Assembly: GCA_016926735.1 (NCBI GenBank)
Contig: JAFGOA010000068.1
Location: forward strand, 1-22,212
DNA from: Promethearchaeota archaeon
GTDB taxonomy: Archaea > Asgardarchaeota > Lokiarchaeia > Sigyniarchaeales > SOKP01
Direction of reading: 5' to 3'
DNA length: 22,212 nt
A program made the position numbers and the translations under genes. The first letter of the stretch is position 1, and the number at the start of each line of letters is the position of its first letter. Below, one piece after another: positions 1,176 through 8,548 of this stretch. A model generated the notes under the pieces. It saw only the letters and a program-made list of their open reading frames with translations. It had not been told where the DNA came from and did not search any database.

Positions 1176-2720
1176 ATGGATAATACATATTTAGAGTACC
1201 AATCATCAAGAATAAGCGATATAGGAAGAAAATCAATACTAACAAAATCTAAAATAAAAAAGACTAATACATCTAAATTGGTATTTCAATTAAAGATGTG
1301 GAATCTCTTAAATAAATTACCGCTTTCTATAATTCTTCATAAATTTAATAAAAATTGTTTTTACTGTAAGCGTAGTTATGCTGAAACAATTATTGATTAT
1401 TATATTTCAAAAAAAATAGAATGTAAGAAATGCAGATTTGCTGCAAAGTTTAAATATCCCCTTGTATCATTTATTTTTCAATTAATCTCTAAAGGTCTTG
1501 GTATGCCAAGCGACTCTTTTAAAAAAATAATCAGAGAGAATAAACCTTTAAAAAGATTGATTTTAAATTATATGGAAGGTCTTGGAAGATATGGATTAAC
1601 AATTCCACAAATTCCTGGAGGACCAATAGTTACGTTATGGTCTATCACAGATAAATGTAATTTGAGATGTAAACATTGTTTTGTTCATCAAAATCAAATA
1701 AAGGATGAAATAAGTTTTTTTGATGCTTGCAAAGTAATTAATCAATTATATGAAGCAAAAAACTTTTCTTTAGGATTTTCAGGAGGAGAAGCATTACTAA
1801 AAAAAGATATTTTTAAGATAATGAAATATGCCTCTGATAAAGGAATGCATATCGCTCTTGCTTCCAACGGAACATTGATTACTAAAGAAGTTGCTTATAA
1901 AATAAAAGAAGCGGGTGTTAAATATGTTCAAATAAGTATTGATGGATTAGAAGAGGTACATAATCAAATCAGAGGAAAAGGAGTTTTTAAAAAAGCAATA
2001 AGAGGTATTAAAAATTGTCTTGAAGTTGGATTATATGTCAGTATGGACGTTGTAATTACCAAACTGAATTTAAATCAACTTGAAGACTTAATAAAATTAG
2101 CAAAATCTTTGAAAGTCCCTAAATTTGAAATCCTTGATTTTATTCCTTCTGGAAAAGCCTCCAAACATGCAAATATTGCATTGAGTCCATTAGAAATTGA
2201 ACATTTAGGATTAAAATTATGCAGATCATGGGAAAAATTAATTGAATCTGATTATCCCTTCTCTTTATCATATAAAAACCCTCATTTCGCGAGAATTGTA
2301 TCTCAAAATATTCCAAATTTACAACTTATGCCCTTTTTTAAAGGTTTATTTCCTAAAAATGCTTTAAAATTCTTTAATTTTTCAAAGAGGCTTTCCAAAG
2401 GAATTCATGATGATCAATCTCCATTTGGACCCTTTATGACGGGATGTGAACCGGGATTTTATGTAATTCATATTGACCCATCACTGAATATAAATCCATG
2501 TCCATTTAATCCTATCTATTTAGGAAATCTTAAAAAAAATCATATTAAGGATATATGGGATAAATCTTCTGTTTTAAATACTTATAGAAAATTGAAATTT
2601 GATAAGAAATGTGGAAAATGTATGTATAAGATAGTATGTGGAGGATGTCGAGCAAAAGCATATCTTGCATTTAATACACATTCAGCACCAGATCCTTCTT
2701 GTATTTTAAATTGCAGATAA
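1176..2720 (+). CDS. Radical SAM protein with C-terminal SPASM domain and long N-terminal extension (possible GMGT synthase-like family)
   Basis: CNLRCKHC (CxxxCxxC), SGGE, SNGT, QISIDG; SPASM cysteines GCEPG..PC..CGKC..VCGGCRAKA..DPSC. The N-terminal extension carries CFYC and CKKC. The subfamily call is inference. Confidence 0.9.
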   Translation: MDNTYLEYQSSRISDIGRKSILTKSKIKKTNTSKLVFQLKMWNLLNKLPLSIILHKFNKNCFYCKRSYAETIIDYYISKKIECKKCRFAAKFKYPLVSFIFQLISKGLGMPSDSFKKIIRENKPLKRLILNYMEGLGRYGLTIPQIPGGPIVTLWSITDKCNLRCKHCFVHQNQIKDEISFFDACKVINQLYEAKNFSLGFSGGEALLKKDIFKIMKYASDKGMHIALASNGTLITKEVAYKIKEAGVKYVQISIDGLEEVHNQIRGKGVFKKAIRGIKNCLEVGLYVSMDVVITKLNLNQLEDLIKLAKSLKVPKFEILDFIPSGKASKHANIALSPLEIEHLGLKLCRSWEKLIESDYPFSLSYKNPHFARIVSQNIPNLQLMPFFKGLFPKNALKFFNFSKRLSKGIHDDQSPFGPFMTGCEPGFYVIHIDPSLNINPCPFNPIYLGNLKKNHIKDIWDKSSVLNTYRKLKFDKKCGKCMYKIVCGGCRAKAYLAFNTHSAPDPSCILNCR

Positions 2721-3399: not shown

Positions 3400-4293
3400 T
3401 TATTTAAAATCTAAATTTCTCTTGGTCCTATTATTTGGATTAGCATAACAATAAAGACAACTATGATAACATATCCAATCTTTTCCATAGCCTCCAATAT
3501 CTTTACTTTTAGTACAACCACAATATTCTCTCTGACCTGGATCTTTAGCTGTAGATAAAGGGATATTCCATAATTTTGATAGAAAATTTCCATCAACACA
3601 ATGAGCTTGTTGTATACCATCAATTTTTAATAAATTTGGATTACAACAAGCAAATAAAGTTATATTATATTTTTTTGCAATTTTAACAAGCTCTTCCGTT
3701 ATTTTTTTCATCTCCTTATCGCTTATTTTATAATAATTAAGTGAAAATCTTTTGAATCTATTTTCTACTTTCCTATAATAAGTAGCGAATGAAATAGTAC
3801 ATTTAGTGATTCCAAAATTAGAAAATTGGTAAACAATTTCTTTGAAATCTTTAAGATTATTTAACAATATATTATTACTTCGGTAAAACACAATTGGATC
3901 AAATCTCCACATAATATGATCAGGAGAACTAATTTCAATCATTTCCTTCAATTGAGAAATACTTTCTTGAAGAGAAGGTGTATTTGGTTCTAAAATCCTA
4001 TCTACAGAATTTCTTGTAAATTGAAAATATACAGGAATTATCCTTTGTGAACTAAATAGGGTATTTTGAGAATAATTTAATAGTATTTCCCATTTATTCA
4101 AAAAAGGCTTAAAATTTTTTGACCATAATACAAATCCAGCAATATCATTTGGTTTAAGAGACACTGTATACACTTTTTTATTATATGGATTTTGAACATT
4201 TATATACTCTTTTTCAATCGCATCTTGAAATTTATCCATATAAAAAGCAGGTCCATCAGTTCTACGACTGAAACTAATAATTTGCTTATTCAT
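3400..4293 (-). CDS. DUF1848 family protein (C-terminal radical-SAM-like Cys cluster)
   Basis: N-terminal IISFSRRTDGPAFY, LWSKN, WRFDPI, and C-terminal KDPGQREYCGC..DIG..CYHSCLYCYAN, all typical of DUF1848. Confidence 0.9.
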   Translation of the reverse strand: MNKQIISFSRRTDGPAFYMDKFQDAIEKEYINVQNPYNKKVYTVSLKPNDIAGFVLWSKNFKPFLNKWEILLNYSQNTLFSSQRIIPVYFQFTRNSVDRILEPNTPSLQESISQLKEMIEISSPDHIMWRFDPIVFYRSNNILLNNLKDFKEIVYQFSNFGITKCTISFATYYRKVENRFKRFSLNYYKISDKEMKKITEELVKIAKKYNITLFACCNPNLLKIDGIQQAHCVDGNFLSKLWNIPLSTAKDPGQREYCGCTKSKDIGGYGKDWICYHSCLYCYANPNNRTKRNLDFK

Positions 4294-4318: not shown

Positions 4319-6052
4319 CTATAATAATCTTATTAGTGACCCAAATCCATATAATGTAGTAAGTGCTGAGCAAAAAAAGATTTGGATTATTATAAATGAA
4401 CTTATTAAAACTGAACTAATTTTACCAGTTTTATTATAAATTAAAGAGTTCATTAACATTACAACGAGACTTATAAGAAAAGCTGCCATAAAAGCAACTA
4501 TAAGAAATAATCCATAAGCTAAAAACATTAAAATAAGCATATGTATAATACCCATAGCGTTGACAATTACTAATTTAATGGCTGAAGATTTTATAAAATT
4601 TAACCTATCAAATACTACTTTTCTATAATATAATTCAAATACCAAATAAAAAGGATAAACACCATATGCCAATATAAAGGATATTATATTGTTAGGGGAA
4701 AAATAGGCAAATGGAAATGAAATAGAAAATGAGAAATATAAAATTAAAAAAATAGTAACTGAAATTATAGGATAAAGAATAACATTCTTTTCGAAGTGAG
4801 AAGATATTATATGTTTCAAATTTAATTTCGAAAAGTAATTTTTTTTTTTCCCATTTGATTTAACCCTTCCAATAATATAATTAATAGAACTTAGAACAAA
4901 AATTAATAATATTATCGCTACGGGTGCAATAAAAAGACCAGGTATTCCAAGTTCTCTAATAAAAAACACCCAAATCATTATAAATAAAATATATGATGTT
5001 AATATCGTAAATGAATTTTGAATACCATGAACAATTCTGTTATGCTTGCTTTCTTTTAATATTGTTGATTCTTCTTTTTCTATCTTAAAATATTGAGACA
5101 TTTTAATCATTACAGCAATGGTAACTAAAAATATTGAAAATAATGTTAAAAATAACAATACATAAACTTGAAGGTAAGTTAAAGATATAGGACCATTAAT
5201 TGAATCAGAACTAAAAAAAGATATTTCGAACCAATTTATTGTTTTTATTAAAACTTCATCTGCTAAAAGGAAGTGCGGACCACCTAAGATATGATATGTA
5301 ATATTTAACAATGTACAGTTGGTTAAATTATGAGCAACCAAAGCATTTTTTTTATATGGTACAGTATTATCATAAATCGAATGAATTACTAAAAGATTTT
5401 GAGGATTGGTTGAATTTATTATTTTTGCAGGTATATAGCTCATAAATAGATTACTTTCACTTATTCCTAATAATTGTGCTGAAAAGTTGACTACACCTGC
5501 CCAGGTTACTGTTGCTTTAAATCTATTATCTAATGCACTTGTCATCAAAGCAACCATTCCTCCAAATGAATGCCCAATAATTCCAATTTGAGAATTATTA
5601 ATTCTATTATACTCAGGAAGAGTTTCTATTTTATCTAATAATCTCGAACAATCTTGAGCAATGGCAGGTACATTTGTTCGGTTCTGATACTCATTATAAT
5701 TGATATCCAATAGTTCACCAGTACTTTCACCACTCCCTCTATAATCAACACTAACAACAAAAAATCCTCTTTTGGTTAGTTCTAAAGGAATTCTAGGATC
5801 CAAATCTTTTTGGCTACCAAGTCCATGAAGGAAAAAAATTAAAGGGTGTTGTTCTTGAAAATCCAAACTCTTCTTTGGAATATATAAATTAGCGTTTATA
5901 GTAGCTCCAGATGAGGAACATTGTATTTTTTTATAATTTATATAACTATTAAATCTATGATAGTATGAAAAACTAATGGAAAATATAAGTAGAAATATTG
6001 AGAAGATTAAAAAAAGATTTTTTCTTTTAGAATGATTATTTTTATTATTCAA
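4319..6052 (-). CDS. Membrane-anchored alpha/beta-hydrolase (S9-like serine hydrolase) fused to a multi-pass C-terminal membrane domain
   Basis: N-terminal hydrophobic anchor, HGLG oxyanion region, DYRGSGES, nucleophile elbow GHSFGG, candidate Asp (DNTV) and His (GGPH); about 7-8 hydrophobic helices after residue ~290. TTG start is uncertain. Confidence 0.8.
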   Translation of the reverse strand: MNNKNNHSKRKNLFLIFSIFLLIFSISFSYYHRFNSYINYKKIQCSSSGATINANLYIPKKSLDFQEQHPLIFFLHGLGSQKDLDPRIPLELTKRGFFVVSVDYRGSGESTGELLDINYNEYQNRTNVPAIAQDCSRLLDKIETLPEYNRINNSQIGIIGHSFGGMVALMTSALDNRFKATVTWAGVVNFSAQLLGISESNLFMSYIPAKIINSTNPQNLLVIHSIYDNTVPYKKNALVAHNLTNCTLLNITYHILGGPHFLLADEVLIKTINWFEISFFSSDSINGPISLTYLQVYVLLFLTLFSIFLVTIAVMIKMSQYFKIEKEESTILKESKHNRIVHGIQNSFTILTSYILFIMIWVFFIRELGIPGLFIAPVAIILLIFVLSSINYIIGRVKSNGKKKNYFSKLNLKHIISSHFEKNVILYPIISVTIFLILYFSFSISFPFAYFSPNNIISFILAYGVYPFYLVFELYYRKVVFDRLNFIKSSAIKLVIVNAMGIIHMLILMFLAYGLFLIVAFMAAFLISLVVMLMNSLIYNKTGKISSVLISSFIIIQIFFCSALTTLYGFGSLIRLL

Positions 6053-6425: not shown

Positions 6426-7703
6426 TTATTTAATTATTTTTCCAAATTGATAACACTTAAAAGAATCTATTCCTTTTATACTATTCGTTTGTTTATAAGC
6501 TCTATATCTGCATCCTCCCCTACAATTATCAAGATATTCACATTCTATTTCAGCACATTTAAGTTCTTTAATATTCCAATTTAATTCCTTTTGAATGATT
6601 TCCCAAGCGTTTTTAAGATTAAGATCAAATACATTTCCTAAATTATATTCTGAAAAAAAACCACACTTAGTTATTTTTCCTTTTACATCAATAGCCATCA
6701 TATATGGACCACATGCATAATTTATTTCTTCTCCTTCTGAAGAAGATTCATAAATTACCCCCCATCCATAATTTTTAAGTATTTCACCCCCATCTTTAAA
6801 AGATATTTCATATTTTTCTCTGATATCTTTTGGAGTTTTATCATCGAATGTAGGAATATCGATTGACCAATTCTTAACTGTTCCAAGTGAAGTTATTAAT
6901 TTATAAATTTCATCAAACTCGCCCAGATTTTGTTTATGAATCATAGTGTTTATAGAAACACTGATGTTATTATCCATAAGGATTTTTATTCCTTTGATTG
7001 TATCTCGAAAACAATCTGAATTCCTAAAATCATTATGAGTACTTTCTAAACCATCAATACTTACAAATACTTCGAAATAATTTTCTTTCAAAAGGTCTAA
7101 AATTATTTGATCTTGTTCGTGGATAAGAGTACCATTAGTTAAAAGTACTTTTTGAAGAGGAAGATCTTTTAATTCTTCTAATAGATTCTTAAGTTTAGAG
7201 TATAGAAAAGGTTCTCCTCCGGTTAAAATAATCTTAATACCTTGTAATTCATAAAATTCTTTTATTAATTTAAATAAAACCTCCAATTCCATATTAATCG
7301 GATTTTTATCAGTTATATAACAATGTTTGCAAGTTAAATTACACTTTTCTGTAATATTTATCATTATATTCTTGAGATAAGGAGGATTTAAAGGATTTTT
7401 TTTTGGCAAGGTTATATGTTCATTAGTTATTATAGAAGGATCAGTTATCATTGTAGAATAAAATTGAATAACACCTATTTCATTATATTTTTCAAGTGCC
7501 TTTTTAATTTCAGATTCCTTATTTGAAGGGAATGAATTAATAATTTCTCTATTAGTTTTTTTTCCATTAATCAAGGATAATAAAGCATATGCCTCGTTAT
7601 CGATGATATATGACTCATCATTTTTTAAATCGTATATATTATAATCTTTATATTTCCTTAAAACTATATTCTTAAGAACATAAGGGAATAGTTCTAAATT
7701 CAT
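6426..7703 (-). CDS. Radical SAM/SPASM peptide maturase candidate with N-terminal PqqD/RRE-like domain
   Basis: CNLTCKHC, TGGEP, TNGT, VSIDG; SPASM cysteines ACGP..TKC..CAEIEC..NCRGGCRYRA..KC. The N-terminal ~85 aa (IYDLKNDESYIIDNEAYALLSLINGKKTNREII..KKALEKYNEIGVI) show the beta-strands plus winged-helix pattern of PqqD/RRE domains. Confidence 0.88.
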   Translation of the reverse strand: MNLELFPYVLKNIVLRKYKDYNIYDLKNDESYIIDNEAYALLSLINGKKTNREIINSFPSNKESEIKKALEKYNEIGVIQFYSTMITDPSIITNEHITLPKKNPLNPPYLKNIMINITEKCNLTCKHCYITDKNPINMELEVLFKLIKEFYELQGIKIILTGGEPFLYSKLKNLLEELKDLPLQKVLLTNGTLIHEQDQIILDLLKENYFEVFVSIDGLESTHNDFRNSDCFRDTIKGIKILMDNNISVSINTMIHKQNLGEFDEIYKLITSLGTVKNWSIDIPTFDDKTPKDIREKYEISFKDGGEILKNYGWGVIYESSSEGEEINYACGPYMMAIDVKGKITKCGFFSEYNLGNVFDLNLKNAWEIIQKELNWNIKELKCAEIECEYLDNCRGGCRYRAYKQTNSIKGIDSFKCYQFGKIIK

Positions 7704-7722: not shown

Positions 7723-7733
7723 ATATATAAAAA
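7723..7733 (-). promoter_or_regulatory. Putative TATA box for the radical SAM gene (leaderless-type spacing)
   Basis: The minus strand reads TTTTTATATAT about 20-30 nt upstream of the ATG at 7703. Weak evidence given the AT-rich background. Confidence 0.3.
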
Positions 7734-7896
7734 TGTTATCTTAATTTATTAAAAGGATGATAAATATATATCTAAGACGTCAAGACATTTCTTTTATGAT
7801 TTTTAAAATCAATTTCAGTAAAATTAATTAGATTTATAAAGGGATAAGATTTAAATTTGAAAGATAATCATATTAGATTAATTATAAAAAGAAAGA

Positions 7897-8022
7897 TTAG
7901 TAAACACCTAATAAGTCCAATTCTAACAGTTCCTGATATCTTTTCTTAGAATTAGCTTTTTTATATTCTCTAAGTATTTCCCAATTATTTCTACTGATTT
8001 CTATATTTTTATTGTTTTTCAT
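7897..8022 (-). CDS. Small 41-aa basic protein, possibly ribbon-helix-helix-like
   Basis: MKNNKNIEISRNNWEILREYKKANSKKRYQELLELDLLGVY. The ATG at 8022 is preceded by AAAGTGATTGAA (GTGA RBS-like) and is preferred over the track's TTG start at 8088. Confidence 0.45.
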   Translation of the reverse strand: MKNNKNIEISRNNWEILREYKKANSKKRYQELLELDLLGVY

Positions 8023-8126: not shown

Positions 8127-8134
8127 AAAAAAAA
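8127..8134 (-). terminator. Possible oligo-T terminator downstream of the Cys-rich peptide gene
   Basis: T8 run on the minus strand starting 24 nt after the stop codon. Such runs are common in this genome. Confidence 0.25.
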
Positions 8135-8157: not shown

Positions 8158-8277
8158 TTAGCAACCGCCGCCACATTTGCAAATACAACCACCACCACAC
8201 TTGCAACTGTTTGAGATGCATCCTCCTCCACATTTACAAGCAGCACTGGTAGTTTTTTCTTTTTTTACAATTTTCAT
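8158..8277 (-). CDS. 39-aa Cys/Gly-rich peptide with three CKCGGGC repeats; candidate radical-SAM RiPP precursor (or metallothionein-like peptide)
   Basis: Hand translation: MKIVKKEKTTSAACKCGGGCISNSCKCGGGCICKCGGGC-stop(TAA). ATG preceded by GTGAATAAA. The repeat copies differ only at synonymous third positions, and the core is locally GC-rich in an AT-rich gap. Confidence 0.9.
   Translation of the reverse strand: MKIVKKEKTTSAACKCGGGCISNSCKCGGGCICKCGGGC
8161..8238 (-). repeat. Three 21-nt coding repeats of CKCGGGC (8218-8238, 8185-8205, 8161-8181)
   Basis: TGTAAATGTGGAGGAGGATGC / TGCAAGTGTGGTGGTGGTTGT / TGCAAATGTGGCGGCGGTTGC on the minus strand. Confidence 0.95.
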
Positions 8278-8351
8278 TTTATTCACATTAAAATTTTAGT
8301 GTGTTAATATTTAATTATTAGAATATATTTTTAAATTCTGCGCTTATTAGA

Positions 8352-8391
8352 AATAATATGAAAAAATCATATAATAATATGAAGAAATCAT
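8352..8391. promoter_or_regulatory. Tandem 19-bp direct repeat (21-bp period), each copy containing the palindrome ATGA-N5-TCAT; putative operator
   Basis: AATAATATGAAAAAATCAT (8352-8370) and AATAATATGAAGAAATCAT (8373-8391), 18/19 identical, in the divergent region between the peptide gene and mtnA. Confidence 0.5.
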
Positions 8392-8548
8392 TACATATTA
8401 CTGAGATTTTTAAATATGAGAAAATTAGATAAAAGTATGAAAAGTATTAAAATAAATTATTCAAAAAATCTTTTATAAGGTTTTTTTTAGATTGAAGTAT
8501 TCATTAATTATAATTACAATTTAAATTAACATAAATAGTATAAATAAA

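Follow-up and report, generated by a model that had tools for sequence, protein, structure and literature searches.

Does a 39-codon open reading frame (ORF) on a contig from an Asgard archaeon encode a real peptide, and if so, what acts on that peptide and what is made from it? The locus that raises this question lies in a 22,212-nt stretch of Promethearchaeota archaeon DNA (assembly GCA_016926735.1, contig JAFGOA010000068.1), here called the window, which is an entire contig (C97) of a 3.88-Mb assembly with 26% G+C. The original prediction, made from the letters of the sequence and a list of ORFs, described a hidden gene with three Cys- and Gly-rich repeats that was translated and under selection rather than the result of DNA slippage, and suggested that it gave one polycyclic product rather than three released cores. 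We found that the ORF, judged by sequence comparison, is a genuine gene under purifying selection, and that it is co-distributed with genes for a radical S-adenosylmethionine (SAM)/SPASM enzyme and for an 81-aa Cys/His protein. The peptide is likely to serve as a precursor: the enzyme would recognise its leader and would modify its CKCGxxC units by radical chemistry.

A small Cys-rich gene under purifying selection

Translation of the minus strand across positions 8158..8286 of the window reads VNKMKIVKKEKTTSAACKCGGGCISNSCKCGGGCICKCGGGC up to the stop codon. Starting from the ATG (Table 1), we obtained the same peptide as in the original prediction, with 9 Cys (23%) and 9 Gly among 39 residues and with neither aromatic residues nor His. 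The GTG at 8286 was considered as an alternative start and rejected, as the codons upstream of the ATG are not conserved and several orthologues carry stop codons 2-3 codons before it. The three 21-nt units, TGTAAATGTGGAGGAGGATGC, TGCAAGTGTGGTGGTGGTTGT and TGCAAATGTGGCGGCGGTTGC, differ pairwise at 6, 4 and 4 nucleotides, and every difference is synonymous; their Gly codons (GGA three times, GGT three times and GGC-GGC-GGT) and the unequal spacers, ISNS and I, also agree with those first described. The ORF is the only open frame containing CGGGC in the 3.88-Mb genome, and with 8 Cys in 25 residues it holds the joint maximum among 21 small ORFs (20-120 aa) that have at least 6 Cys in a segment of that length. 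A homologue search did not find the 39-aa peptide in a collection of 5.8 billion proteins, in which its family is represented by 6 clusters only. Because the enzyme of the same contig is included in that collection and the peptide is missing, calling the gene hidden is fair.

Homologues were located by searching related genomes for the downstream enzyme and reading the flanks, and a profile was then built from them. This peptide profile had matches in 20 genomes out of 135 at the level of the taxonomic family and, for the phylum, in 27 out of 400; counts of this kind run over related genomes and are not independent, and most of the genomes are fragmented metagenome assemblies. The homologues follow one plan throughout, namely M-K-I-V-K-K-E-K, a stretch of roughly five small residues and a C-terminal series of one to three C-K-C-G-x-x-C units. 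Within the unit, C1, C3 and C7 are invariant, as is K2 apart from one lineage that has Ala, and position 4 is mostly Gly. The xx positions vary (GG, DS, GD, SA, SS, ST and SG), and one genome has CKCGGDAC twice. Spacers between units range from a single residue (I, V or M) to five. The frame is kept and the stop directly follows the last Cys in all 21 loci examined, which clearly contradicts one of the conditions named as refuting the original prediction, a lack of orthologues in frame. Outside the core, the best-conserved part is the leader N-terminus, M-K/T-I-x-K/R-K/V, which is recognisable across classes and domains.

Substitutions in these genes are overwhelmingly synonymous. Compared with its three closest homologues, the gene in the window shows 14, 13 and 16 synonymous against 0, 1 and 2 nonsynonymous differences. 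In distant pairs the synonymous sites are saturated (proportion of synonymous differences, pS, 0.7-0.98), with a proportion of nonsynonymous differences (pN) of 0.08-0.23, and the median ratio of nonsynonymous to synonymous substitution rates (dN/dS) is 0.106 over the 61 pairs for which an unsaturated dS could be computed. Comparison of unit with unit inside each of 19 multi-unit genes gave 223 base differences in synonymous codon pairs and 26 in nonsynonymous ones. These counts are not independent because the 19 genes are related; nevertheless, predominantly synonymous divergence of the units is general for the family.

The alternative that the ORF is not a gene at all, being a DNA-level repeat or a chance open frame, draws on its small size and on its having gone uncalled in the source collection. 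It is very hard to reconcile with synonymous sites that approach saturation while the frame, start, stop and amino acids stay conserved between genera, between families and in two domains, and with promoter and terminator signals that are conserved as well. We therefore regard this alternative as extremely improbable, and the view that the repeats reflect selection on a translated gene and not slippage holds, given the kept frame and stop, the synonymous excess both between genomes and between units, and the conserved flanking signals.

Two metatranscriptome runs of the same study yielded only short spurious pieces at the locus, which say nothing about its transcription. A salt-marsh DNA run contains a relative that is about 95% identical across the locus, and this was not used as evidence. 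We also noted a variant in the same genus as the window: at locus L059 (G003:C162, 430-583, minus strand) an orthologous peptide gene has kept its promoter, leader and terminator in a genome whose enzyme is intact and 92% identical. Two in-frame insertions of 30 nt, nearly identical to each other, interrupt it, in both cases separating the Lys of a unit from the second Cys. Each insertion holds a TAA stop, so that translation would end after 23 residues. The gene is broken, or else it is a variant for which we have no explanation.

Conserved promoter and terminator signals

The GTGA element before the ATG is Shine-Dalgarno-like and presumably complementary to the 3' end of 16S rRNA; elements of the GTGA, TGAT or GATC type stand at the same position in many orthologues, judged by eye and without a count. 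Further upstream, a TATA box of the form TTTAAA(A/T)A is found 52-75 nt before the peptide ATG in 19 of 21 loci. Archaeal transcription terminates at oligo-T, and T-runs follow the peptide stop at about 20-45 nt in 21 of 21 loci, so the T8 run in the window is a candidate terminator of this kind.

Upstream of the TATA box lie four direct TCATAYT boxes that form two pairs, with the members of each pair 21 nt, or about two helical turns, apart. All 19 loci compared have the proximal boxes, 25 and 46 nt upstream of the TATA box, which are kept across genera and offset by 3-4 nt in one sub-group; 10 of the 19 also have the distal pair (83 and 104 nt). The layout is as expected for an upstream activator site, and we propose the array as a candidate transcription-factor binding array. 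Across the genome, two boxes plus a TATA box occur at the peptide gene and in one relaxed match only. A wider TCATAYT regulon was considered and rejected: single pairs occur at close to the chance level (5 found against about 4 expected by our own estimate), and only the full pattern is specific.

The enzyme gene has a TATA-like element of its own. By our reading, most of the 13 enzyme loci compared have a similar aYaTTTTTAT-like element equally far from the ATG (the flank at L025 is only 36 nt long), which suggests a separate enzyme promoter with little or no leader.

An enzyme with the architecture of peptide maturases

The 425-aa protein encoded downstream matches the Pfam family Radical_SAM (PF04055, 5.6e-22), and its CX3CX2C motif (C121/C125/C128) is invariant in 13 of 13 orthologues. 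The Pfam family SPASM (PF13186) was not matched at E<=0.01; the SPASM pattern is nonetheless present as seven invariant cysteines with the right spacing (C331, G342-x4-C347, C383, C388, C394, C398 and C417). A profile of the enzyme aligns over nearly its full length with the structures of TigE (8vpo), SuiB (5v1q) and CteB (5wgg), and its best sequence match in PDB is SkfB (3e-18, in the core). Foldseek searches with the structure model, which has a pLDDT (predicted local distance difference test) score of 78.4, returned as best matches SuiB (E 6e-16, template modelling score about 0.6-0.67), CteB, SkfB and TigE, all of which are peptide maturases. The enzyme has the architecture of the radical SAM/SPASM peptide maturases.

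At its N-terminus, residues 6-82 are modelled as a domain of four strands (6-9, 13-17, 21-25 and 30-34) and three helices (36-42, 51-56 and 60-75), and the PDB alignments begin at residues 23-34 of enzymes with known recognition domains. From the fold of the model and these alignments, we predict that this domain is a winged-helix recognition element (RRE) for a ribosomally synthesised and post-translationally modified peptide (RiPP).

A predicted complex supports binding of the leader by this domain. Using our own orthologue alignments for both chains and three controls, we obtained a score of 0.70 for peptide and enzyme (runs of 0.70, 0.73 and 0.69) against 0.00 for the best control; in calibration, 58 of 80 solved complexes scored at or above this mark, as did 2 of 110 mismatched pairs. 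The runs agreed in at least 49% of contacts, with a partner pLDDT of at least 41. The confident part of the modelled interface joins peptide residues 1-6 to enzyme residues 30-38, 41 and 65-76, which belong to the N-terminal domain, in its last strand and its long helix. Leader peptides bind the recognition elements of solved maturase complexes through just such a strand and helix surface.

Co-distribution of peptide, enzyme and partner

The peptide occurs in genomes together with the enzyme and the 81-aa protein. Among the 135 genomes of the family, 20 have the peptide, 24 have the 81-aa protein and 22 have the enzyme at E<=1e-60. The enzyme accompanies the peptide in 19 of 20 cases; in G054, the one genome that departs from this, the peptide gene is at the end of a contig and the 81-aa gene at the start of one. 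The enzyme without the peptide was seen in three genomes: G003 and G008, which are cut at contig edges, and G017. Neither of the two genera with the most genomes (0 of 54 and 0 of 42) has any of the three components.

In the sample of 400 genomes of the phylum, the peptide was found in 27 genomes and the 81-aa protein in 35, with 26 of the 27 peptide genomes having the 81-aa protein. The remaining nine genomes have the 81-aa protein with no match to the peptide profile. Two of these contain divergent peptides, found by eye, with the cores CKCSSDC and CACKKCC; two are at contig edges; one is G017; one holds only a remnant of the 81-aa gene; and three, from another family, have a doubled 81-aa domain and no orthologous enzyme nearby. 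The co-distribution is patchy within genera and spans five families.

Peptides of 20-21 aa with a single unit and a leader of the same type also occur in four other Asgard families, encoded beside enzymes that are 33-37% identical to the one in the window, with one or two copies of the 81-aa protein alongside; database labels in this tier of enzymes include Helarchaeota and Jordarchaeum. An enzyme of 34% identity is labelled as belonging to a Thermodesulfovibrionales bacterium, and on metagenome contigs of bacterial type (G+C 0.38-0.52) that encode its relatives, a 20-aa peptide with the core CKCKSSC is encoded directly after the enzyme gene. Therefore, the module is not confined to Asgard archaea. 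At L099 and L097 a longer homologue of the 81-aa protein is encoded divergently upstream of the enzyme, and the L097 contig ends before any peptide. The proteins of these single-unit and bacterial-type modules match no curated family, and the multi-unit form of the peptide was seen only in the family of the window.

This distribution bears on the main alternative, in which the peptide is not modified at all and is instead a metallothionein-like or other metal-binding protein for Cu, Zn, Cd, Ni or an Fe-S cluster, with the box array as a metal-responsive promoter and only an indirect link to the enzyme, for example through metal or cluster supply. C-x-C motifs are typical of metallothioneins, and the resemblance in composition is real: the peptide is small, about 23% Cys, rich in Gly, Ser and Asp, free of aromatics and His, and built of repeats of C-x-C plus C-x3-C whose number varies from one to three, as in modular metal-binding proteins. 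A dedicated, conserved upstream array would also suggest the tight regulation of such a protein, and the peptide and enzyme genes appear to be separately transcribed and are sometimes unlinked. Against this, three members of the peptide family matched none of the Pfam and NCBIfam families at E<=10, and the peptide is essentially confined to genomes that have the enzyme and the 81-aa protein, which would be unexpected for a free-standing metal buffer. It also differs from metallothioneins in its leader-like, conserved N-terminus, where the MKIVKK segment, placed by the model on the recognition domain, has no obvious metal-binding role. An unmodified metal-binding protein thus seems to us quite unlikely.

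The 81-aa partner protein

The gene for the 81-aa protein directly follows the enzyme gene in 13 of 13 loci fetched from relatives as well as in the window. The protein is 64-84% identical across genera, with an invariant C26-H27-K28-C29 and the motif QEYWE-x-EYEC45. It resembles nothing curated: only sub-threshold matches were obtained in NCBIfam (SMEK_N, E 0.037, 13.9 against 30 bits; SpoIIE, E 0.1) and Pfam (NMD3, E 0.033, 14.1 against 24.9 bits), Foldseek returned no match for its model (pLDDT 72.6) at E<=0.001, and a protein-atlas look-up led only to its own Promethearchaeota cluster. Databases list it as a hypothetical protein of Lokiarchaeota or Promethearchaeota. We also observed tandem duplicates of the protein, or a fused double domain of 141-146 aa, in other Asgard families; doubled or fused loci are L069 (G307:C4, 9312-9740), L072 (G308:C118, 9022-9447) and L068 (8644-9084).

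When the neighbours of the peptide gene were clustered over 25 loci, only the enzyme and 81-aa genes recurred, and the clustering revealed no conserved protease, transporter or immunity gene. Together with the presence of the module in two domains and the C-terminal Cys at which the core ends, this keeps in play a different outcome, in which the peptide is a substrate and the CKCxxxC unit is converted with the help of the 81-aa protein into a cofactor-like or metal-chelating product, not a thioether. The logic would parallel that of mycofactocin or pyrroloquinoline quinone (PQQ), where the target of a SPASM enzyme is the very C-terminal end of a small, conserved peptide. In accordance with it, the core ends exactly at the last Cys and the stop, also in the wider Asgard and bacterial-type loci; the small partner is strictly conserved in its Cys/His and acidic-aromatic motifs; the enzyme aligns almost end to end with the mycofactocin maturase model; and a module shared by archaea and bacteria suits a housekeeping function better than an antibiotic. 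Multi-unit precursors with spacers of 1-5 residues would, on the other hand, be unusual for a cofactor, and the enzyme falls below the family cut-offs for both mycofactocin and PQQ. On balance we consider this outcome improbable.

Proposed mechanism and points against it

Returning to the reading that we favour, a radical-modified precursor, the mechanism could run as follows. The 39-aa ORF would be a separately transcribed small gene whose product is a ribosomal precursor peptide. The enzyme, encoded 455 nt downstream, would bind the short Lys-rich leader of this peptide (MKIVKK...) through the N-terminal recognition domain, and the C-terminal CKCGxxC units, three in this case, would then be modified by radical chemistry, with the 81-aa Cys/His protein as an accessory. 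The likeliest modification would be intramolecular cross-linking of the cysteines by thioether-type bonds, as in sactipeptides and ranthipeptides. In one Lokiarchaeia-type family the copy number of the unit may have been raised from one to two or three per chain. We infer the role of the peptide as substrate, the type of chemistry and the role of the product from the observations given above.

Thioether formation is our first choice of chemistry since the full-length matches of the enzyme (AlbA, PapB, CteB, SkfB and SuiB) coincide with a Cys-rich core, and by this analogy it stands as a tentative proposal. The variable xx positions argue against a side-chain-specific acceptor at those sites. 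As the number of units among relatives varies from one to three, and the spacers from 1 to 5 residues, the seven-residue unit is probably the functional module, and one unit would be enough. A single multi-unit product seems more likely than the release of identical cores, because spacers can be as short as one residue and no protease is conserved, which is in line with what the original prediction had suggested from the spacers of the window alone.

Several observations weigh against a modified precursor of this kind. First, the scores of the enzyme against the curated maturase families that we tested all fall well short of the respective cut-offs: 35.1 bits against 425 for the SCIFF maturase (TIGR03974), 85.5 against 340 for PapB (NF047865), 66.6 against 850 for AlbA (NF012164), 80.8 against 625 for StsB, 74.9 against 400 for ACGX (TIGR04340) and 71.7 against 265 for the mycofactocin maturase (TIGR03962, aligned near full length); it is below the cut-off of the PQQ family too, and the CrpC family ("rSAM vs Cys-rich", TIGR04463, cut-off 525 bits) was not matched at E<=0.001. 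For this reason, chemistry cannot be transferred from a characterised relative. Second, the link between the genes is not uniform. Peptide and enzyme genes lie 0.08-0.8 kb apart on the same or divergent strands in most loci, and 3-12 kb apart in G001, G006, G011, G021 and G274; they are on different contigs in about five more, including G005, G148, G046 and G275. Since the enzyme gene has its own TATA-like element, the two would be separate transcription units. In G017, a genome that is 97% complete, the enzyme and the 81-aa protein are present and the peptide was undetected even at E<=10. Third, known acceptor motifs (such as C-X3-D/E) resemble neither the variable xx positions nor the very small rings possible within a seven-residue unit, and a composition of 23% Cys with C-x-C and no aromatics fits a metal-binding peptide equally well. 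Lastly, leader-RRE complexes have already been solved (SuiB-SuiA and CteB-CteA), so the score of the predicted complex may reflect mere likeness to these, and it is silent on the core.

A bolder form of the proposal combines these strands. The three genes, for a peptide of 20-43 aa, the enzyme and the small Cys/His protein, might yield a chemically new cofactor-like or metal-binding product from C-K-C-x3-C that is not a classical sactipeptide or ranthipeptide, with up to three copies of the unit kept identical by selection and expression under a dedicated box array. We view this as possible but rather unlikely.

Comparison with known systems

The closest systems in logic are the SCIFF peptides and other ranthipeptides together with the sactipeptides, and the closest in archaea is the CrpA-CrpC pair of Methanococcus voltae. 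Like CteA-CteB and PapA-PapB, the present system pairs a small Cys-rich precursor with a radical SAM/SPASM enzyme that has an N-terminal recognition domain, and CteB is among the best structural matches of the enzyme; we know of no dedicated protease or transporter that is conserved with SCIFF systems. Unlike them, the peptide matches no SCIFF model (TIGR03973; no NCBIfam family at E<=10), its seven-residue CKCGxxC core stands one to three times at the extreme C-terminus with no conserved Asp, Glu or Thr acceptor, and the host is an Asgard archaeon. The sactipeptide maturases AlbA, SkfB and StsB share the architecture and a Cys-rich substrate, and the AlbA model aligns with residues 33-416 of the enzyme. 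Known sactipeptides, however, pair Cys donors and acceptors in opposite halves of a hairpin, whereas here there are only tandem units of seven residues. In the ACGX system (TIGR04340), tandem short Cys-Gly repeats occur in a small peptide beside a radical SAM/SPASM enzyme; the peptide described here has no NCBIfam match at E<=10 and the enzyme falls below the ACGX cut-off.

In M. voltae, a SPASM enzyme, CrpC, installs ranthionine links in CrpA, a large Cys-repeat protein with ten 17-residue repeats, according to a study that left out proteins below 100 aa (PMC13692751). The two systems have in common an archaeal host, a repeated Cys motif in the substrate, a leader-like N-terminus and an enzyme of RRE-radical SAM-SPASM type, and they differ in that CrpA is a large protein rather than a 39-aa peptide and that nothing equivalent to the 81-aa partner belongs to CrpA-CrpC. 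The passage that we found in a survey of RiPP clusters in archaea treats radical-SAM classes of Asgard archaea only in general terms (PMC12144867). The unit motifs CKCGGGC, CKCGGDC, CKCGDSC and KCGGGC did not occur in a search of the full-text literature, and the family is undescribed in the literature that we found on RiPPs, radical SAM enzymes and ranthipeptides of Asgard archaea or Lokiarchaeota; the supplementary lists of PMC13692751 and PMC12144867 could include the enzyme. On these comparisons of sequence, we file the system as a radical SAM/SPASM-type Cys-rich peptide system in which the precursor family and the obligatory small partner appear to be new.

Other genes and elements of the locus

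Between the peptide and enzyme genes there is a second small ORF of 41 aa, which is kept only within the genus. It is present in all four genomes, directly upstream of the radical SAM gene, and as a pair of paralogues in one of them; its relatives lie at L028 (6604-6723), L020 (6169-6288 and 5792-5911) and L059 (180-303, minus strand). These proteins of 40-41 aa have a Lys-rich start, the motifs W-E-x-L-x-E-Y-K and K-K-R-Y/F, and an end in G-V-Y, G-Y or G-C. Synonymous differences exceed nonsynonymous ones in 10 of 10 pairs (for example, pS 0.57 against pN 0.17 and 0.35 against 0.03), with a narrow margin in three of the four pairs that involve the second G001 paralogue (for example, 0.41 against 0.36). 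This ORF could encode a second substrate or a small regulator. A 63-aa ORF read in the same interval was rejected, as it is not conserved as such and only its last 41 codons are kept, again within the genus.

Downstream of the module, we considered the S9 peptidase-like alpha/beta-hydrolase as a conserved leader protease and rejected it, as it is linked to the module in three genomes only, all within the genus. The DUF1848 gene is near the module in five genomes and is probably outside the core; its product could be a further radical-SAM-like enzyme or a mere neighbour. Also in the window, a second radical SAM/SPASM protein comes closest to the AhbD, NirJ and TIGR04053 models and remains below their cut-offs (207 against 500 bits); against TIGR04463 it reaches 54.6 bits, with a cut-off of 525. 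A gene resembling amine oxidases dependent on flavin adenine dinucleotide (FAD) is found near the module in four genomes (for example, L024 7806-9362 and L031 8415-9923), directly after the 81-aa gene in G011 and G019, and may be a lineage-specific tailoring enzyme. Asgard genomes commonly contain genes for Ras-family small GTPases, and some of the genomes here have such genes on the flanks of the module (L027 7358-7885; L029 4623-5156), probably with no relation to it.

Table 1. Features of the locus, with positions in the 22,212-nt window
Feature	Position	Strand	Remarks
Candidate transcription-factor binding array, four direct TCATAYT boxes	8355..8440	-	Starts 25, 46, 83 and 104 nt upstream of the TATA box
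TATA box TTTAAAAA	8328..8335	-	58 nt before the peptide ATG
GTGA, Shine-Dalgarno-like	8283..8286	-	6-9 nt before the peptide ATG
39-aa precursor-like peptide gene	8158..8277	-	ATG at 8277; last Cys codon 8163..8161; TAA 8160..8158
Layout of the peptide			Leader MKIVKKEKTTSAA, then 3 x CKCGGGC with spacers ISNS and I; translation of the minus strand
T8 run, candidate archaeal oligo-T terminator	8127..8134	-	24 nt after the peptide stop
Second small ORF, 41 aa (MKNNKNIE...LLGVY)	7897..8022	-	tblastn and ORF listing
TATA-like TTTTTAT	7727..7735	-	About 24-32 nt before the enzyme ATG
RRE-radical SAM-SPASM enzyme, 425 aa, proposed maturase	6426..7703	-	455 nt downstream of the peptide gene
Conserved Cys/His partner protein, 81 aa	6137..6382	-	Directly after the enzyme gene
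Alpha/beta-hydrolase (S9 peptidase-like), 577 aa, long membrane C-terminal half	4319..6052	-	Pfam
DUF1848 protein	3400..4293	-	Pfam; C-terminal CX3CX2C (C-Y-H-S-C-L-Y-C) read in the translation
Second radical SAM/SPASM gene, 514 aa, Cys-rich N-terminal extension	1176..2720	+	

Implications

Asgard archaea are the closest prokaryotic relatives of eukaryotes, and hardly any work has explored their natural-product-like peptide pathways. Annotation routinely passes over genes of 20-43 codons, as seen from the 6 clusters of this family in the protein collection against its presence in 27 of 400 genomes. The triple of substrate, enzyme and partner described here is defined, expressible and assayable, with a minimal 20-aa form for chemistry and naturally occurring precursors that have one, two or three units, and the conserved promoter array could reveal the controlling signal. 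If the chemistry is new, the system would add a class of radical-SAM peptide modification, and if the product binds metals, it would provide a first handle on metal handling in these archaea.

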